From NCBI GenBank assembly GCA_016432465.1, contig CP066690.1, positions 186,702 to 250,701 of the forward strand: a stretch of DNA of 64,000 nucleotides, written 5' to 3'. Of the stretch, positions 3,955-58,852 are shown in pieces (position 1 is the stretch's first letter; each line of letters opens with the position of its first letter). Below the pieces are notes generated by a model that did not search any database, was not told where the DNA came from, and saw nothing but the letters and a program-made list of their open reading frames with translations. A program made the position numbers and the translations under genes. Origin of the DNA: Candidatus Sungiibacteriota bacterium (GTDB lineage: Bacteria > Patescibacteriota > Minisyncoccia > Sungbacterales > HO2-52-23).

Positions 3955-4024
3955 CCCCGTTAGAGATAAGTCCCGACGTGACGTCGGGACTGCCGATACC
4001 CAAGGCATCGGATCTCTAACGGGG
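3955..4024. mobile_element. MITE-like element (~70 bp) with 13-bp terminal inverted repeats CCCCGTTAGAGAT / ATCTCTAACGGGG and the internal hairpin GTCCCGACGTGACGTCGGGAC
   Basis: Terminal inverted repeats read directly; the same core recurs at 33032-33133, 56867-56968 and 58365-58554. Confidence 0.55.
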
Positions 4025-9997: not shown

Positions 9998-10020
9998 CTA
10001 TAGAGGTCGGACCTCTATAG
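9998..10020. repeat. REP palindrome CTATAGAGGTCgGACCTCTATAG (copy 1, 10 bp upstream of the RAYT start)
   Basis: 23-bp unit with perfect 11-bp arms; four copies in the window. Confidence 0.8.
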
Positions 10021-10030
10021 AGTAAAAGAT

Positions 10031-10711
10031 ATGCACAACCAACAGGTACCAGAAGACAAATACTATCATGTTTATAACAGGGGCGTAGAGAAGAGAGATG
10101 TTTTTCTGAATAACTCAGATTACCATAGATTCTTATATCTTCTTTTTGCGTGCAATGATACTGCCCAACTTCTAAATTCCCAATTTCACTATAGAGGTCC
10201 GACCTCTATAGTAAATAAAGAACGAGATCAGCTTGTTGATATTATTTGTTTTTGTCTTATGCCGAATCACTATCATTTAATACTAAAACCAAGAAAAGAG
10301 AACGGTATGCCATTATTTATGCAAAAAATTGGCACCGGTTACACGATGTATTTTAATACAAAAAGGCAAAGAAGCGGTGTCTTATTTCAAGGCGGCTACA
10401 AATCTATATTAATTGATAATGAAGGCTATCTTTCCCATCTGACTCGCTACATCCATCTCAATCCAGCCGAGCTTATTGAACCAAAATGGAAAAAAGTAGG
10501 TATACTTAAAGCCAAAGAAACACACAAATTTGTAAAAGAGTATAAGTGGTCAAGTTACCGTGACTATCTGAATACACCACATTTTCCTCATTTGCTAAAC
10601 GTGGAACTTATCAAAGAACTATTCCTGCCAAAACAAGAATACGAGTCTTTTGTCCACGAGTGGTTAGTTGATAATATAAATCTGTTGGGGCGATATACCC
10701 TTGAAGATTAA
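10031..10711 (+). CDS. REP-associated tyrosine transposase (RAYT, IS200/Y1 transposase family)
   Basis: YHVYNRG, HuH motif MPNHYHLIL, catalytic Tyr motif RYIHLNP, and the RAYT-specific KWSSYRDY (W.WSS) motif; flanked by REP copies. Confidence 0.8.
   Translation: MHNQQVPEDKYYHVYNRGVEKRDVFLNNSDYHRFLYLLFACNDTAQLLNSQFHYRGPTSIVNKERDQLVDIICFCLMPNHYHLILKPRKENGMPLFMQKIGTGYTMYFNTKRQRSGVLFQGGYKSILIDNEGYLSHLTRYIHLNPAELIEPKWKKVGILKAKETHKFVKEYKWSSYRDYLNTPHFPHLLNVELIKELFLPKQEYESFVHEWLVDNINLLGRYTLED
10189..10211. repeat. REP palindrome copy 2 (centre base inverted), in-frame inside the RAYT CDS, encoding HYRGPTSIV
   Basis: CTATAGAGGTCcGACCTCTATAG inside the 10031..10711 ORF. Confidence 0.75.
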
Positions 10712-10734
10712 CTATAGAGGTCGGACCTCTATAG
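10712..10734. repeat. REP palindrome copy 3, immediately after the RAYT stop
   Basis: CTATAGAGGTCgGACCTCTATAG. Confidence 0.8.
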
Positions 10735-22423: not shown

Positions 22424-22461
22424 CCCCCACCTTTCCAGCGGGGTATTCTGGGAAGGTGGGG
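22424..22461. repeat. GC-rich hairpin-family copy CCCCCCACCTTTCCAGcggggtattCTGGGAAGGTGGGGG between pgk and the DHH gene
   Basis: Same unit as 40119-40159 and 39171-39348. Confidence 0.6.
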
Positions 22462-22480
22462 GATAAAATATAAAGCAGCG

Positions 22481-31321: not shown

Positions 31322-32655
31322 TATTTATAATTTTTACCGCCGACTTTGATTTTTGATCCTTGTCCCGCAAAGGCCTCCGGATGACTTACGGTTTTTTGCC
31401 CGATTTCCAGCCGCACTGGAGAAATTTTTCGCAGTTTCTCCACTATTCCCGGGAAAACTTCCAAAACATAATCCAAATCTTCTTTGGTGGTTCGCCTGCC
31501 TAAAGTAAACCGCAACGAGCCATGTGCGTATTCGTATGGCCGACCTATGGCCAAAATCACATGTGAGGGGTCAAGCGTAGTTGAGGTGCAGGCAGATCCG
31601 GTGGAAATATAAATTCCTTTAGCGTCAAGATATAAAATCACGGCTTCACCCTCAATATCCAGAACCGAAATATTTATATTATTGGGGAGACGTTTTTTCG
31701 GGTGCCCGTTCAAAACAATTTTGGGAACGCGCTTCATAACTTCGCTGATAAAATAATCGCGAAGTTTTAGGAGCCGAGCGTTTTCTTTTTCGCGCTCTTC
31801 TTGCGCCAGCTCAAACGCCTTGGCAAACCCTATAATTCCCGGGATATTTTCCGTGCCGGAGCGCAGATTATTTTCCTGCCCTCCGCCATAAATCAAGGGC
31901 CTTAAACGGATGCCGCGCCGGATATATAGACACCCAACTCCTTTGGGCCCGTAAATTTTTGACCCGTTCATGGCCAGTAAATCAACTCCTAGTTTTTGAA
32001 CATCCATATCCAATGCACCGGCCGCCTGACAGGCATCGGTATGGAAAAAGATCGGAGTCGGATTACCTGCGACTTTTCGTTCCTCGCGTATCTCTTTTAT
32101 TATTTTCCCAATTTCCTCAATCGGCTCAATGGTCCCAATTTCGTTATTAGCATACATTATTGAAACCAAAATCGTATACGGGCGAATAGCTTTTTTTATT
32201 TCTTCCTGACGAACAAGACCGTATTCGTCCACATCAAGATAAGTTACTTCCCAGCCAGAGGCTGGTCCGCCCCCGGCGGAAAATCCTTCTTTTTCCAACG
32301 CTTCCAGAGAATGCAATACGGCATGATGTTCAATTTTGGAAGTAATTATGTGCCTCCCTTGATCCTTATACATTCGGGCAACCCCAAAAATGGCAAGATT
32401 TATTGCTTCTGTGCCTCCTCCGGTAAACACAAGCTCTTCGGATTTGCAATTCAAAAGCCGCGCGACGACTGAACGCGCACTATCCAACGACTCTTTAGCT
32501 CGGCGCCCGGGACGATATAAACTTGAAGGATTACCATATTCTTCTTCCCAATACGGTTCCATTGCCTCGGCGACCCGAGGATCAAGATACGTTGTTGCCG
32601 CGTGATCAAGATATACCCCGTTAGAGATATATTTTGGAGCTTCCTTTTCAGTCAT
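31321..32655 (-). CDS. nifS: Cysteine desulfurase (NifS/IscS), start taken at the internal Met MTEKEAP
   Basis: YLDHAATT; PLP-Lys region SGSKIYGPKG; active-site loop STGSACTS. Confidence 0.85.
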   Translation of the reverse strand: MTEKEAPKYISNGVYLDHAATTYLDPRVAEAMEPYWEEEYGNPSSLYRPGRRAKESLDSARSVVARLLNCKSEELVFTGGGTEAINLAIFGVARMYKDQGRHIITSKIEHHAVLHSLEALEKEGFSAGGGPASGWEVTYLDVDEYGLVRQEEIKKAIRPYTILVSIMYANNEIGTIEPIEEIGKIIKEIREERKVAGNPTPIFFHTDACQAAGALDMDVQKLGVDLLAMNGSKIYGPKGVGCLYIRRGIRLRPLIYGGGQENNLRSGTENIPGIIGFAKAFELAQEEREKENARLLKLRDYFISEVMKRVPKIVLNGHPKKRLPNNINISVLDIEGEAVILYLDAKGIYISTGSACTSTTLDPSHVILAIGRPYEYAHGSLRFTLGRRTTKEDLDYVLEVFPGIVEKLRKISPVRLEIGQKTVSHPEAFAGQGSKIKVGGKNYK

Positions 32656-32703
32656 GTTCTTAACTGTGGAGAATATCACCCCCTTAGATGATTTGTTGAA
32701 CAA

Positions 32704-32716
32704 ATCTCTAACGGGG
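32704..32716. mobile_element. Solo MITE terminal-repeat remnant ATCTCTAACGGGG between the Rrf2 gene and nifS
   Basis: Matches the right-hand terminal repeat of the MITE family; imperfect partner CCCCTTAGATGA 20 bp upstream. Confidence 0.4.
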
Positions 32717-33017: not shown

Positions 33018-33018
33018 C

Positions 33019-33227
33019 CCGATAGTGATTTATCCCGTTAGAGATTTATTACGTATGGAAACATGCAGTAAGACGCGTTCCGCATACATTGATATCCTAC
33101 AAACCGCATTTAGTTCCATATCTCTAACGGGATTTACGGTTAGACTTGATAAATAACTTACTCCCATAGTAATTATACATATTATAACCCCGGCAGGTAT
33201 GAACTTTATCACTATCGGGATTCATAA
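33019..33227. mobile_element. Nested MITE-like element: outer inverted repeat TCCCGATAGTGAT / ATCACTATCGGGA enclosing an inner element (33032-33133) with ATCCCGTTAGAGAT / ATCTCTAACGGGAT terminal repeats
   Basis: Both inverted-repeat pairs read directly. Confidence 0.5.
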
Positions 33228-33275: not shown

Positions 33276-33298
33276 CTATAGAGGTCGGACCTCTATAG
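33276..33298. repeat. REP palindrome copy 4 (CTATAGAGGTCgGACCTCTATAG) just downstream of the peroxiredoxin gene
   Basis: Identical to the REPs flanking the RAYT. Confidence 0.8.
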
Positions 33299-39170: not shown

Positions 39171-39348
39171 CCCCCCACCTTCCCAGCGGGGTATTGGACC
39201 CCGCGGGAAGGATTTCTACGGCACCCATTCATCCCCGCAGTCCAGCCTTCGTCCCGCTTCTAGCGGGACTACGGTCGCACGCCGCTATAGCTTTGGCGAC
39301 GGCGCGCGGAGTAGGCCAAGCTGCGGGGTATTCTGGGAAGGTGGGGGG
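39171..39348. repeat. Composite copy of the GC-rich hairpin family: the CCCCCCACCTTCCCAGCGGGGTATT hairpin interrupted by ~110 bp carrying the sub-hairpin GTCCCGCttctaGCGGGAC
   Basis: Half-sites at 39171-39211 and 39321-39348. Confidence 0.5.
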
Positions 39349-40085: not shown

Positions 40086-40118
40086 GATTGACGTTGGTAA
40101 ACCCCCACACTCATAAAT

Positions 40119-40159
40119 CCCCCCACCTTCCCAGCGGGGTATTCTGGGAAGGTGGGGGG
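40119..40159. repeat. Canonical GC-rich hairpin CCCCCCACCTTCCCAG cggggtatt CTGGGAAGGTGGGGGG (perfect 16-bp stem), 9 nt 3' of tRNA-Gln
   Basis: Perfect palindrome; family recurs at 626-777, 22424-22461 and 39171-39348. Confidence 0.7.
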
Positions 40160-40167
40160 ATAAATTT

Positions 40168-40238
40168 CTCGGGGACAGGGAATCGAACCCCAATTTCGAG
40201 GTTCAGAGCCTCGCGTCCTACCTTTAGACGACCCCCGA
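40168..40238 (-). tRNA. tRNA-Gln (anticodon CTG)
   Basis: Hand-folded cloverleaf: acceptor UCGGGGG/UCCCCGA with the U1-A72 pair typical of bacterial tRNA-Gln; anticodon stem CGAGG/CCTCG, loop CTCTGAA; T-loop TTCGATT. Confidence 0.7.
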
Positions 40239-40248
40239 ACGTTTGAGT

Positions 40249-40310
40249 GTGGGGGCGGGCCAAGATAACATGCTTCAGAGGCATGTGGCCTACCATTAGC
40301 CGACCCCGCA
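40249..40310 (-). pseudogene. tRNA-Gln-like fragment (acceptor 5' strand, D-arm and CTG anticodon arm intact; T-arm and 3' acceptor missing)
   Basis: TGCGGGGTCGGCTAATGGTAGGCCACATGCCTCTGAAGCATG folds like the 5' two-thirds of a tRNA-Gln; no TTCGA T-loop follows. Confidence 0.35.
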
Positions 40311-48450: not shown

Positions 48451-48612
48451 GGGAACCTCCTCTCGTTTGATTGCCGCAGCGGTATGCTACGGCAACAAAG
48501 AAAAAACTAACCTCTTAACTCCCTCTTTGTTGCCGTAGAATATAGCCTATTTTAAGATACTTAGTAGCTAACTCAATAGTAACATAAATGTAGAAAAAAG
48601 TCAAATAAATTA

Positions 48613-48777
48613 GCCTACCCCGGGACTTGAACCCGAAACCCATTTACCCCGTTAGATGTGCCAATGAGCCGGTGGTCGGATTTGAACCGACGACCCACGC
48701 TTTACGAAAGCGTTGCTCTACCACTGAGCTACACCGGCACATCTAACGGGGTTGCTCTGCCATTGAGCTAGGTCGGC
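48613..48777 (-). other. Split tRNA-like sequence whose 5' half (acceptor and D-arm) and 3' half (T-arm and acceptor) are separated by an insertion bounded by a perfect 16-bp inverted repeat (CCCCGTTAGATGTGCC) that contains tRNA-Thr
   Basis: 5' half GCCGACCTAGCTCAATGGCAGAGCAACCCC; 3' half GGGGTAAATGGGTTTCGGGTTCAAGTCCCGGGGTAGGCT; inverted repeats at 48647-48662 and 48736-48751. Confidence 0.35.
48667..48738 (-). tRNA. tRNA-Thr (anticodon CGT)
   Basis: GCCGGTGTAGCTCAGTGGTAGAGCAACGCTTTCGTAAAGCGTGGGTCGTCGGTTCAAATCCGACCACCGGCT; anticodon stem ACGCT/AGCGT, loop TTCGTAA. Confidence 0.75.
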
Positions 48778-48840
48778 ATTTCTAACGTTCCTGCTAAACT
48801 GTCAAACATCGAACATGTCAAACATTGAATGTCTGACATA

Positions 48841-56427: not shown

Positions 56428-56450
56428 TAAAAAATAGCACACTAGTGCTA
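56428..56450 (-). terminator. Hairpin AAAATAGCACA cta GTGCTATTTT (terminator/operator-like); a near-identical copy lies at 57739-57761
   Basis: Palindrome followed by TTTATTTCAGTT on the minus strand. Confidence 0.4.
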
Positions 56451-56464
56451 TTTTGCAATATGGT

Positions 56465-56701
56465 TTATGTTTCGTCTCGGGGGTAATAATCTTTCAGCTT
56501 TAACTTGTACTGATCACATTTTCTTTGCCATGCGCCAGCCAGTTTTCCAAGAGCCGAAACATTTATCAGCAGCACCTTGCCTAGTTTAGGAACGTGAACC
56601 TTAACGTAACTTGGGCAAACGTTGATAATAACTATGTCTTCCTCCGTAAGATTTTCGTAGGGGAGTTCGTCAAAATCGGGCTGTTTCGGCCTTTCCGGCA
56701 T
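56465..56701 (-). CDS. Small hypothetical protein (78 aa from the internal Met MPERPKQ)
   Basis: GGAGAAGGA Shine-Dalgarno 4 nt upstream of that Met. Confidence 0.4.
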   Translation of the reverse strand: MPERPKQPDFDELPYENLTEEDIVIINVCPSYVKVHVPKLGKVLLINVSALGKLAGAWQRKCDQYKLKLKDYYPRDET

Positions 56702-56866
56702 ATTCCTTCTCCTCTCGTGAGCTAAAATAGACGTAGCACACCCGTGCGACTTTTGCAAATTTCGGTTTTCTTTCTTCTGACAAGCGGGCCGCCCGCCCAT
56801 CTTTGATGGGCGGGGCGAGCCTCGCTCAACTTGCAAAGTAAATTGAGCGGGCCGAGTTTTGGATAA

Positions 56867-56968
56867 ATCCCGTTAGAGATGCGGAACGTAATGTTCTTTG
56901 TGACATCAATAAGAATGGCGGAGTGCTTGTATCAACCGTTTCAGTACTGCATAAATCTCTAACGGGAT
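56867..56968. mobile_element. MITE-like element copy (102 bp), terminal repeats ATCCCGTTAGAGAT / ATCTCTAACGGGAT
   Basis: Terminal repeats read directly; internal sequence is the reverse complement of unit 2 of the 58365-58554 copy. Confidence 0.6.
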
Positions 56969-57004
56969 AAATAAATACCGCTGGCAGAGCCAGGCGGCAC
57001 AAAT

Positions 57005-57715
57005 TTAGTACATGACCCACGAACTGGCATAGTCCTTAATGTATTTTTCTTGCGCTGGTGTCCATGGTATGATCTCTGCCGTGCCCAGAGGAGTTTGAGG
57101 ATTTTTTTGGAAGGCTGCATGATAAAGATGCCAATCGTCACTATTGATTAGTCTACCGCATTGCTTTATTAACTTTAGCCGACCTTCTGCGATGAGTTCC
57201 TTTTCAATTCGCTCCATTATGCTCAATGCATAACATGGAGTTAGCTGGATGATGACGATAAGCACTCCTCTATTTTTCAAAACTCGGAATGCTTCTTTGG
57301 TTATCTCCCACTTTGTTAGTTCACTTATACAAATTTCTTGTGGATACGGCTCACTACGCGGAGTAGTACCGGGGGGTGGAGCAGAAAAAACACCAGAAAT
57401 GATTACAATATCAACGGACTGATTGGGAAGACACAATTTTCTACCATCGCCAAGGACGAAGTTGATACAGACCGACTTGGGGGTCGAGCCGATTTCGGTC
57501 AACTGTTTTAGCCGTTCAATGGCCCTCTGGATTGAGTCTGCATTTTTGTCCAAACAGATAAATCGATTCTCTGACGACAAATCCACATATTCGTCTATAA
57601 TTGGGGTTATAACTGGAGCATACTTATCCGGGTTGGAAAGGCAAAATGAACGGACGATTGGCCAGGGATTGGCACCACAGCCTATATCGAGAATAAGCTT
57701 TTTTTGTTGAGTCAT
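57005..57715 (-). CDS. Class I SAM-dependent methyltransferase
   Basis: Motif I LILDIGCGANPWP; acidic loop; motif IV region. Confidence 0.8.
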   Translation of the reverse strand: MTQQKKLILDIGCGANPWPIVRSFCLSNPDKYAPVITPIIDEYVDLSSENRFICLDKNADSIQRAIERLKQLTEIGSTPKSVCINFVLGDGRKLCLPNQSVDIVIISGVFSAPPPGTTPRSEPYPQEICISELTKWEITKEAFRVLKNRGVLIVIIQLTPCYALSIMERIEKELIAEGRLKLIKQCGRLINSDDWHLYHAAFQKNPQTPLGTAEIIPWTPAQEKYIKDYASSWVMY

Positions 57716-57738
57716 ATCCCCACCTATAAATGATACTC

Positions 57739-57761
57739 AAACTAAAATAGCACAGATGTGC
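57739..57761 (-). terminator. Hairpin AAAATAGCACA gat GTGCTATTTA between hicA and the methyltransferase gene
   Basis: Second copy of the 56428-56450 palindrome. Confidence 0.4.
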
Positions 57762-57826
57762 TATTTAGTCAAACGGCACAAGCGGGAACCTGTTTTGCAG
57801 AAACAAATGGTTGGTTGGTGCCGAGT

Positions 57827-58045
57827 TTATAGGAAATCTAGGAACTGTTTTAACTCCAAACCCGATTGTGTAATGATATGTTTTAATGTCTTCCGTTTCA
57901 AATCTTTGTTATGATACGGAACTGTCACGCCGACCCTACCTTTAATGTAAATCCGATGGCTCCCTTTTTGACGCTCAAATACAAAACCCGCTCTTTCCAG
58001 AGCGACTATAACCTCTCTTGGTTTAAGAACGGGCGATTTAGGCAT
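57827..58045 (-). CDS. hicA: HicA-family toxin (mRNA interferase)
   Basis: ALERAGFVFERQKGSHRIY...VPYHNKDLKRKTLKHIITQSGL. Confidence 0.8.
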   Translation of the reverse strand: MPKSPVLKPREVIVALERAGFVFERQKGSHRIYIKGRVGVTVPYHNKDLKRKTLKHIITQSGLELKQFLDFL

Positions 58046-58306
58046 CTATACCTTAACTTCAATCGGAGCAATAACCGCGCCTCTGGTTTCTAGCGGAATT
58101 TCTGTGTTCTTTTTCTCCATAACTTCAATGTATAAACTGGCAGCCTCTTTTATATTTTCTGCCGCTTCCTCAAAAGTATCCCCTTCCGAAATGCAACCAG
58201 GTAATGCGGGAATGGTTGCAGTAAAACCGCCAGCTTTTTCGTCCGGCTCAAAAACGGCTGTATATTGATATACTTTTTTAATTATTTTTCGCTTCATTAA
58301 ATTCAT
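58046..58306 (-). CDS. hicB: HicB-family antitoxin (UPF0150)
   Basis: YTAVFEPDEKAGGFTATIPALPGCISEGDTFEEAAENIKEA; abuts hicA. Confidence 0.75.
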   Translation of the reverse strand: MNLMKRKIIKKVYQYTAVFEPDEKAGGFTATIPALPGCISEGDTFEEAAENIKEAASLYIEVMEKKNTEIPLETRGAVIAPIEVKV

Positions 58307-58364
58307 TATACCCGGATTTGGTGTGGTGTCAACAACTTATTTTTTTGTACCGAGTTTTGGATTT

Positions 58365-58554
58365 ATCCCGTTAGAGATGCAGGTCATATCCTTAATGCGA
58401 GCTTAGCGTGAAAAGCTATTTACCACTTGGTAATTTTCGGATTTGCACTTAATTCTCTAACGGGATTTATGCAGTACTGAAACGATTGATACACACACTC
58501 CGCCATTCTTACTGATGTCGCAAAAAACACTGCATTCCGCGTCTCTAACGGGAC
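58365..58554. mobile_element. Composite MITE-like element: terminal repeat - unit 1 - terminal repeat - unit 2 (inverted copy of the 56867-56968 core) - terminal repeat
   Basis: ATCCCGTTAGAGAT at 58365-58378; ATTCTCTAACGGGAT at 58452-58466; GTCTCTAACGGGAC at 58541-58554. Confidence 0.6.
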
Positions 58555-58579
58555 AATAAAAAAGACCCCCCAAAGGAGG

Positions 58580-58852
58580 TCATTGACAATTGATGATTAT
58601 TACAGGTATGGGGGGCGGGTTTTTCGCTATTTCTTCCCGTATCTCTCTACAAAGTTGTTTCCTTTCCTCTGGAGTCATTTGTTTCATCAAGTCATTCAGT
58701 TGGTTCATCATAATATGCAATGTCGCCAACCTATTCGCCAAGTCTTCAACAAATGCCTCATAATTTTTATCTTGATCCGCAAAAGGATATACATATGCAG
58801 GACCCAGAAGAATTGTCGACAAAAGTAGTATGGCTAATAGTTTTCTGAACAT
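58580..58852 (-). CDS. Small secreted hypothetical protein
   Basis: Signal peptide MFRKLLAILLLSTILLGPAYVYP. Confidence 0.4.
   Translation of the reverse strand: MFRKLLAILLLSTILLGPAYVYPFADQDKNYEAFVEDLANRLATLHIMMNQLNDLMKQMTPEERKQLCREIREEIAKNPPPIPVIIINCQ

Follow-up and report, generated by a model that had tools for sequence, protein, structure and literature searches.

The stretch of DNA analysed here (the window: 64,000 nucleotides of contig CP066690.1 of a Candidatus Sungiibacteriota bacterium) carries, at 56.8–58.6 kb, exactly three open reading frames (ORFs) between copies of a short repeat, all on the minus strand: a class I S-adenosylmethionine (SAM)-dependent methyltransferase, the toxin HicA and the antitoxin HicB (Table 1). 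An earlier note on this DNA had described the repeats as resembling MITEs (miniature inverted-repeat transposable elements) and the whole as a composite, MITE-mobilised addiction or defence cassette. Its statements about the sequence all hold, including the presence of copies with shared termini on either side of exactly three co-oriented genes. We found that the repeats belong to a very widespread family, one of small insertion elements that form hairpins. Two of them, A and B, inserted separately at this locus, as each has its own perfect 4-bp duplication. The overall account that we consider probable combines this widespread family of hairpin elements and their independent insertion at the locus with a coding relative that encodes a GIY-YIG nuclease and with mobilisation of the elements in trans.

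Element A is complete and non-coding. Its 14-nt arms (56867–56880 and 56955–56968) are complementary at 100%, and a 4-bp duplication, TAAA, stands on both sides of it (56864–56867 and 56968–56971); the outer flanks read ...GGATAAAT on the left and AAATACC... on the right, and when joined they contain a single TAAA. Element B, which is also complete, is flanked by a duplication of TTTA (58362–58365 and 58466–58469), and the 74-nt cores of A and B are unrelated to each other. B is abutted by a truncated element, A', such that 58464–58553 forms a 90-nt inverted copy of 56868–56957 with 89% identity. The description of the right-hand copy as a composite with a third terminus, preceded by an inverted duplicate of the left core, was therefore accurate. 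A' lacks its own left terminus, the next four bases after it are CAAT, and the outer flanks of the A...A' composite (TAAA and CAAT) do not match. The extended left flank that had been noticed at both copies is likewise present, as a 31-nt direct repeat at the left ends of A and B (CCGAGTTTTGGAT(AA/TT)ATCCCGTTAGAGATGC, 56852–56882 and 58350–58380, 94% identical), and its outer 13-mer occurs at just these two sites in the whole window. We considered whether this 13-nt flank could be the degenerate terminus of an older element and found the match, at about 7–8 of 12 positions, unconvincing. Complete copies fold as single strands far better than shuffled sequences do (z -4.5 to -10). An Rfam scan of 56700–58700 by E-value gave chance-level matches alone, and a scan at gathering thresholds returned four tRNAs and nothing else. 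Several runs of a single sequencing project (SRR121134xx) yielded contigs that do not differ across the A–B locus.

Table 1. Coordinates of the features discussed, counted from the first base of the window (a dot marks features without an assigned strand).
Feature	Position	Strand	Remarks
Element A, non-coding, complete	56868–56967	.	T + CCCGTTAGAGAT (56869–56880), core of 74 nt, ATCTCTAACGGG (56955–56966) + A
Element B, complete	58366–58465	.	T + CCCGTTAGAGAT (58367–58378), core of 74 nt, TTCTCTAACGGG (58453–58464) + A
Element A', truncated, abutting B	58466–58553	.	Inverted copy of the A core, ending in GTCTCTAACGGG (58541–58552) + A
13-nt flank CCGAGTTTTGGAT	56852–56864	+	Outer part of the 31-nt direct repeat, shared with the second copy
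13-nt flank CCGAGTTTTGGAT, second copy	58350–58362	+	
Canonical copy inside iscS	32616–32716	.	In frame, 105 nt = 35 codons, after codon 5; flanks TTTA / TATA
Variant element with compensated termini CCCGATAGTGAT / ATCACTATCGGG	33018–33219	.	Duplication TTCA; flush with the iscR start codon
Canonical short copy	3955–4024	.	Two GC-rich hairpins form the 44-nt core; flanks without a matching duplication
Class I SAM-dependent methyltransferase, small-molecule type	57005–57715	-	Methyltransf_11-like
Palindrome AAAATAGCACAGATGTGCTATTT	57744–57766	.	Between -35 and -10 of the methyltransferase promoter
hicA toxin gene	57827–58045	-	PF07927, E 3e-19
hicB-like antitoxin gene	58046–58306	-	PF15919, E 1e-12
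hicBA promoter, TTGACA-16-TATAAT	58332–58305	-	12/12 sigma-70 consensus, between element B and hicB
Intrinsic-terminator-like hairpin and T run	58581–58564	-	Of the upstream 90-aa gene
RAYT-like gene	10031–10711	+	Y1_Tnp/IS200-like, PF01797, E 1.5e-9; HUH motif NHYHL

The same termini recur throughout the window and far beyond it. The 11-mer CCCGTTAGAGA is present 11 times in the window against 0.96 expected, a count reached by 0/100 shuffles, and the 64 kb hold six terminus pairs, with a core shared by A and A' only. A search of a collection of metagenome-assembled genomes (MAGs), which required exact matches to both 12-mers (24 nt) at a distance of 50–80 nt, returned at least 120 loci, where we estimate a chance expectation of about 0.07. 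Hosts among the matches listed were Patescibacteria (many classes), Omnitrophota, Planctomycetota, Elusimicrobiota, Nitrospirota, proteobacteria and others, and two scans of viral contigs gave no match. The termini are 13-nt inverted repeats, (C/T)CCCGTTAGAGAT ... ATCTCTAACGGG(G/A), composed of 12-nt exact arms and, in 94% of elements, one additional complementary base at -1/+1 (CCCG is preceded by C or T, and CGGG is followed by the complementary base). Units measure 68–114 bp, with cores of 44–90 nt whose lengths have modes near 53 and 75. The 4-mers at positions -5 to -2 and +2 to +5 are identical in 78/129 elements (permutation mean 11.4, maximum 22 in 1000 permutations), and the duplicated 4-mers follow the pattern TNNA (TGAA/TTCA 36, TAAA/TTTA 10, TCAA 9, TCCA 8). 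The cores are mostly unrelated, with 131 of them falling into 108 clusters; one subfamily, with A, A' and the copy at 33034 among its members, has subterminal sequence in common with copies from other Patescibacteria. In structure the elements are MITEs: short (< ~500 bp), without a transposase gene, and with inverted termini and a target duplication. The earlier label of MITE-like is thus borne out, given also that the elements are mostly non-coding, are present in many copies and have a gene-carrying relative with the same termini. The possibility that the cores of ~75 nt are decayed tRNAs was set aside, as ARAGORN, relaxed settings included, called a tRNA in 1/131 cores. Literature searches for the terminus sequence gave unrelated primer matches alone, and we found no relevant literature on MITEs or attC sites in Patescibacteria.

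Insertion into a pre-existing sequence can be seen in iscS. The iscS of the window reads MREVY, then 35 residues, then LDHAATT, and its orthologues (80–82% identity) start MREVYLDHAATT. In the orthologue at locus L214 the site is empty (ATGCGAGAAGTTTATTTGGATCAC; GAAG TTTA TTTGGATCAC), and in the window it is filled (GAAG TTTA C-element-G TATA TCTTGATCAC); the start codon called by NCBI for this gene lies inside the element (P0125). Two elements bracket iscR in the iscR–iscS housekeeping operon, one of them being within the first codons of iscS. The variant element upstream of iscR has a canonical copy nested inside it (33034–33131, duplication TTTA). Two independent short-read contigs (L005/L006) end inside this nested element, at the equivalent of ~33107 in the window, which suggests either that assemblies break at the elements or that the population is heterogeneous at this site. 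Considering all clear in-gene copies, in which the frame is open on both sides, the core is divisible by 3 in 4/4; two further stop-free cases have cores of 52 and 53 nt, which are not divisible by 3. An RNA intron or splicing was rejected as an explanation, since translation runs through these 4/4 clear copies, all of a length divisible by 3.

Gene starts are a common site of insertion. Overall, 45/129 elements (35%) lie flush against an ORF's start codon (ORFs of 80 aa or more), an arrangement in which the element's terminal purine, together with the TG of the TGAA target, rebuilds ATG or GTG. Because the start codon is rebuilt, such insertions would be tolerated and accumulate. At locus L022, the retained start is GTG and the duplicated copy is still ATG. 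Similarly, the 5' end (CGGG) of tRNA-Pro is rebuilt by three copies, and complete tRNA genes are enclosed by a canonical copy at locus L039 and by a variant copy in the window (48647–48751). In the latter (CCCCGTTAGATGT ... ACATCTAACGGGG), the core is a whole tRNA-Thr(CGT) gene, and the flanks (region 48610–48790) resemble the 5' and 3' halves of a second tRNA; removal of the element at any junction that we tried left no detectable tRNA.

Clustering of all ORFs from the 120 listed element loci yielded one recurrent family that had not been expected, a small GIY-YIG protein, which links the elements to a nuclease. GIY-YIG ORFs with 68–70% identity were found in Nitrospirota, deltaproteobacterial and Saccharibacteria MAGs, each at most 30 nt from an element, and a further copy (51% identity) lies at the same distance (<=30 nt) in another Patescibacterium. 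At one Omnitrophota locus (L009:3774–4159) the order is terminus, ORF, terminus, with a nested short copy interrupting the ORF, and at another locus (L081:439–562) a 124-nt element retains the first 23 ORF codons alone. A metagenome scan using an alignment of five GIY-YIG proteins confirmed 549 relatives among 600 candidates, and among the best 80 metagenome loci there are 76 in which the GIY-YIG ORF stands between the arms of a 12-nt inverted repeat with no more than 1 mismatch. The coding unit has a modal length of 279 bp and a single ORF, encoding an 86-aa single-domain GIY-YIG nuclease. It consists of a terminus, 5–9 nt, ATG and 84–86 codons, the last of which (F-L-S-L-T-G) are encoded by the right terminus; the stop codon, TGA or TAA, is borrowed from the flank (TGAA/TAAA) in 48/74 units. 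Several loci carry terminus variants in which a change in one arm is compensated in the other (CACG...CGTG, GCCG...CGGC, CCCGTTAAAG, CCCGTACAAA). The idea that the short cores are deletion products of the nuclease ORF was not retained, as L081 is the sole documented case, in addition to one weak match.

The protein matches Pfam PF01541 (E 3e-16), its catalytic-motif columns Y5, Y16, G18, R26, H30 and E62 are invariant in the alignment, and the nearest solved structure is UPF0213 BH0048 (1zg2, E 1e-8). The protein database has at least 7,943 relatives; nearly all of the 120 that were listed have a length of 86 aa and go by no other name than "GIY-YIG nuclease family protein" or "putative endonuclease". 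In AT-rich hosts (right ends of L210, L202, L207, L186 and L174), the nuclease stop and the host start overlap as ATGA (...ACG GGA TGA A...), an overlap by which the host gene's translation could be coupled to the nuclease's. In two Nitrospirota MAGs (L115:5350–6880 and L095:5150–6300), elements alternate with small genes near a type I restriction-modification system and an Mrr-type nuclease; these two genomes have a GIY-YIG unit in common (87% DNA identity) with differing neighbours, and one position is a minimal element with a 5-nt core.

From these observations we infer that the nuclease mobilises the elements, which we put forward as a proposal and not as a result. The 86-aa nuclease, supplied in trans, would recognise the termini, probably as a single-strand hairpin as the Ssn nucleases do, and would cut at the stem base beside TNNA. 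Host repair or ligation would complete excision and insertion, and the short non-coding copies would be mobilised in trans. The history of the A–B locus is itself visible in the sequence: A and B entered two neutral intergenic spots independently, A beyond the methyltransferase terminator and B in the interval from the upstream gene's terminator to the hicBA promoter. A' is a truncated inverted copy of an A-type element abutted by B, which may have arisen by nested insertion or by recombination at the terminus.

Several considerations count against this proposal. Both the nuclease activity and the transposition of the elements are predicted from sequence. GIY-YIG hydrolases form no covalent intermediate, so that host functions would be required to join the strands. 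No GIY-YIG ORF lies in the 64-kb window. Identical flanking 4-mers are present in 13/74 coding units (3.9 expected, maximum 10), many coding units have inverted rather than direct flanks, and a comparison of the short cores with the nuclease ORF gave 1 weak match among 131. The 108 core clusters for 131 elements are unlike the burst pattern of ordinary MITEs, and a search by exact match favours copies with perfect termini. In addition, the 13-nt flank common to A and B is real and is left unaccounted for. A more ambitious claim, for which we see some chance and which we advance tentatively, is that the unit of ~279 bp may be an autonomous transposon, the smallest known and the first with a GIY-YIG transposase. 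The copies at the locus would then be its non-coding satellites, spread across many phyla by insertion at TNNA, often at start codons that are rebuilt.

As for the genes between the copies, we consider the methyltransferase, hicA and hicB to be ordinary residents in at least two transcription units, not cargo. The methyltransferase has Pfam matches to Methyltransf_11/25/31 alone, all weak (E 1e-5 to 2e-4), and its sole NCBIfam match, also weak, is ArsM-like. It has no match to the N6_Mtase, N6_N4_Mtase or C5 DNA methyltransferase families, so that the suggestion of an orphan modification enzyme is not supported: the families that match are small-molecule ones. The protein is rare (4 proteins match among 5.8 billion). 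Detectable homologues are 46–53% identical, and the contexts of the 50% and 53% ones were checked; both adjoin a DUF2914 gene and are without hicAB, the palindrome or the repeats. The gene has its own promoter-like site (57772–57744), which overlaps a palindrome, and a terminator-like hairpin (56993–56981), beyond which A lies. The palindrome follows the pattern TAGCAC-N4-GTGCTA (AAAATAGCAC-N4-GTGCTATTT), with an exact copy of the core at 56431–56453 and an imperfect copy at 56730–56752 (70% identity across the repeat of 23 nt, and 1 mismatch when compared with the 16-nt core pattern). Its copies sit 30–45 nt upstream of minus-strand genes that follow one another, namely those for the methyltransferase, a 78-aa ORF and a DUF5715 protein, and the palindrome resembles an operator at which a single regulator could act on all three.

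In the hicBA pair the antitoxin gene comes before the toxin gene, with zero gap between them. The -10 box of the hicBA promoter overlaps the first ATG of hicB and ends 7 nt ahead of the second (58297), which is probably the true start. Because the -10 box ends so close to the second ATG, a leaderless or near-leaderless hicB mRNA is suggested. B and A' are placed between the terminator of the 90-aa gene and the hicBA promoter. Compared with HicAB type II toxin-antitoxin systems in general, the pair has the same adjacent HicB-like and HicA genes, strong Pfam matches and its own promoter, and nothing about it is unusual. We found no tie at the locus between hicAB and the adjoining methyltransferase.

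In light of this, we weighed the reading of the locus as a composite transposon, in which two MITE copies serve as arms that carry the methyltransferase and hicAB as a mobile cassette. The inverted A and A' (90 nt, 89%) do bracket the three genes, the 31-nt direct repeat left of A and B might, in principle, allow a circle to integrate or be excised through recombination, and toxin-antitoxin genes are typical mobile cargo. We nevertheless regard this reading as improbable. Target-site duplications are present, as the earlier note had proposed to check, on A and on B singly; none surrounds the composite, whose outer flanks are TAAA and CAAT and whose A' is one terminus short. The genes lie in separate transcription units, with promoters and terminators between the units, and the same cassette was not recovered elsewhere, given that the 50–53% identical methyltransferase homologues have neither hicAB nor repeats beside them. 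The flanking copies turned out to be generic repeats that occur whatever the cargo and, because two elements likewise bracket the housekeeping gene iscR, bracketing is uninformative about cargo. The recovered contigs, from several samples, are all identical, without a variant that lacks the segment; nothing shows the three genes moving together as a cassette. An invertible promoter switch was also considered and rejected, as a single orientation was present in contigs of at least 4 samples and the direct duplications favour insertion.

The repeats themselves could instead be hairpins domesticated by their hosts for structural or regulatory roles (like REP/BIME, dRS3/NIME or NTS), kept for mRNA processing or stability, termination or the control of incoming single-stranded DNA (ssDNA), with the GIY-YIG protein acting as a site-specific ssDNA nuclease and not as a mobiliser. 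In-place selection on the termini would fit their perfect conservation beside cores that are nearly all different. An RNA-processing stem would fit the two elements that enclose real tRNA genes and those that adjoin mature tRNA 5' ends, and Ssn/NTS is known to modulate transformation in Neisseria (PMC11893778). Set against this are the clear 4-bp duplications with an empty site in an orthologue, the nested copies and the in-frame insertions within coding sequence, and we judge it unlikely as a full explanation; domestication could follow insertion, and the two views are not exclusive. Mobilisation by a DDE transposase of the IS1380/piggyBac type, with the GIY-YIG ORF as a passenger, appears more doubtful still. 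IS1380 and piggyBac elements have CC(C)...GG(G) ends and a 4–5-bp duplication, the piggyBac TTAA being one form of TNNA, so that the CCC...GGG ends and TNNA duplication seen here do recall piggyBac (TTAA-CCC...GGG-TTAA), and the literature refers to IS1380 and piggyBac as linked. However, Pfam scans of about 50 window proteins identified no DDE transposase, ~0.9 Mb of loci contained no long terminus-bounded unit besides the GIY-YIG one, and that unit of ~279 bp has space for the GIY-YIG ORF only, with termini that overlap the ORF end. We give very little credence to the view that the repeats are integron attC sites, or other tyrosine-recombinase sites, delimiting exchangeable gene cassettes. 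GTTAGAG / CTCTAAC resemble the core motifs GTTRRRY / RYYYAAC, and the two Nitrospirota genomes have small-gene arrays split by elements in a restriction-modification island, with differing neighbours. The order of the motifs is reversed, however (GTT outermost on the left and AAC outermost on the right, where attC reads 5'-RYYYAAC ... GTTRRRY-3'), the stems are perfect and have no extrahelical bases, the 4-bp direct duplication flanks the short element and not genes, and no integrase was identified in the Pfam scans of window proteins.

Other repeats and genes of the window were also recorded. The RAYT-like gene scores 42 bits against NCBIfam REP_Tyr_transpos, below the cut-off, and has a palindrome, CTATAGAGGTCGGACCTCTATAG, on both sides (9998–10734), with one copy within the ORF and a fourth near ahpC (33276–33298). 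RAYT was rejected as the mobiliser of the hairpin elements, as the palindrome that flanks this gene is a different one. A second family of hairpin elements has the termini CCCCCCACCTTCC / GGAAGGTGGGGGG (627–776, 22424–22462, 39171–39348 and 40119–40159), and 3/4 of its copies display the flank pattern of the main family (ATAAAT...ATAAAT, GTTTAC...GTTTAT); elements with quite different termini may thus follow one insertion rule (CCC...GGG ends, TNNA). A tRNA-Gln(CTG) (40102–40255) is enclosed by another inverted repeat (CCCCCACACTCAT / TGAGTGTGGGGG), with a 41-nt hairpin from the CCCCCCACCTTCC family nested next to it. This Patescibacteria genome also encodes a Pup-ligase family protein (PF03136, 50254–51732) adjoining a DUF4015 protein, and a look-up of a 1221-aa protein gave no record.

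The locus itself is deflating, as independent copies of a common repeat simply happen to have three ordinary genes between them. The family has wider consequences. If the 86-aa GIY-YIG protein does mobilise these units, it would represent a new catalytic class beside the DDE, HUH, serine, tyrosine and DEDD transposases of bacteria, it would set a new lower size limit for an autonomous element, and the Ssn nucleases, which act on ssDNA, would gain an evolutionary origin as selfish elements. The elements also interrupt assemblies made from short reads (one copy contains the ends of two contigs), move or extend the starts predicted for genes (as in iscS) and insert peptides into proteins of Patescibacteria and other uncultured phyla, and annotation pipelines would gain by recognising them.

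Among known systems, the elements are comparable to the Rickettsia RPE and the Neisseria NIME/dRS3 repeats, which are likewise hairpin units of ~100 bp with inverted termini; some RPE copies lie in frame inside protein genes, and NIME are variable blocks of 50–150 bp, each flanked by a conserved inverted repeat. In contrast to these MITEs, the elements described here have the same 12–13-nt termini across many phyla with cores that are nearly all unrelated, a 4-bp TNNA duplication, 35% of copies exactly at start codons, and as candidate parent a 279-bp GIY-YIG unit instead of a DDE insertion sequence. REP/REPIN sequences and their RAYT (a Y1 HUH transposase) offer another parallel, being hairpin repeats found genome-wide and tied to a small, single-copy nuclease-type gene that is flanked by the repeat; here, the RAYT-like gene of the window is flanked by CTATAGAGGTCGGACCTCTATAG and is without CCCGTTAGAGAT termini, and to our knowledge REPINs have not been reported to have target duplications. 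The CCC...GGG ends and 4-bp T..A duplication of piggyBac/IS1380 are a resemblance only, as the unit here is ~279 bp with a GIY-YIG nuclease and no DDE transposase was found. The closest published system is that of the Ssn nucleases with their NTS/SRM repeats, and our literature search found no other relevant paper. These nucleases cut ssDNA a few bases upstream of the hairpin repeats that flank them (Chenal et al, 2025, Nat Commun, PMC11893778), and the authors note that the repeat-gene-repeat layout looks like an insertion sequence. The paper makes no mention of target-site duplications or Patescibacteria, and we found in it no description of 13-nt terminal inverted repeats, start-codon insertion or short non-coding derivatives (PMC11893778). 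The SRM pattern (HGTCWYN0-2YYVSBRHN0-5WNVSBRGN0-2RNCYNB) was matched neither in the window nor across 191,083 nt of nuclease loci (0 in each). Both systems are wide across phyla, and in both a single-domain GIY-YIG gene of ~90 aa is bracketed by a repeat that forms a hairpin and is scattered in many copies through the genome. They differ in that the gene described here is bracketed by the two halves of one inverted repeat (the 13-nt termini) and encodes a protein of 86 aa, not 94, whereas an Ssn gene has a complete hairpin of 20–50 nt on each side.

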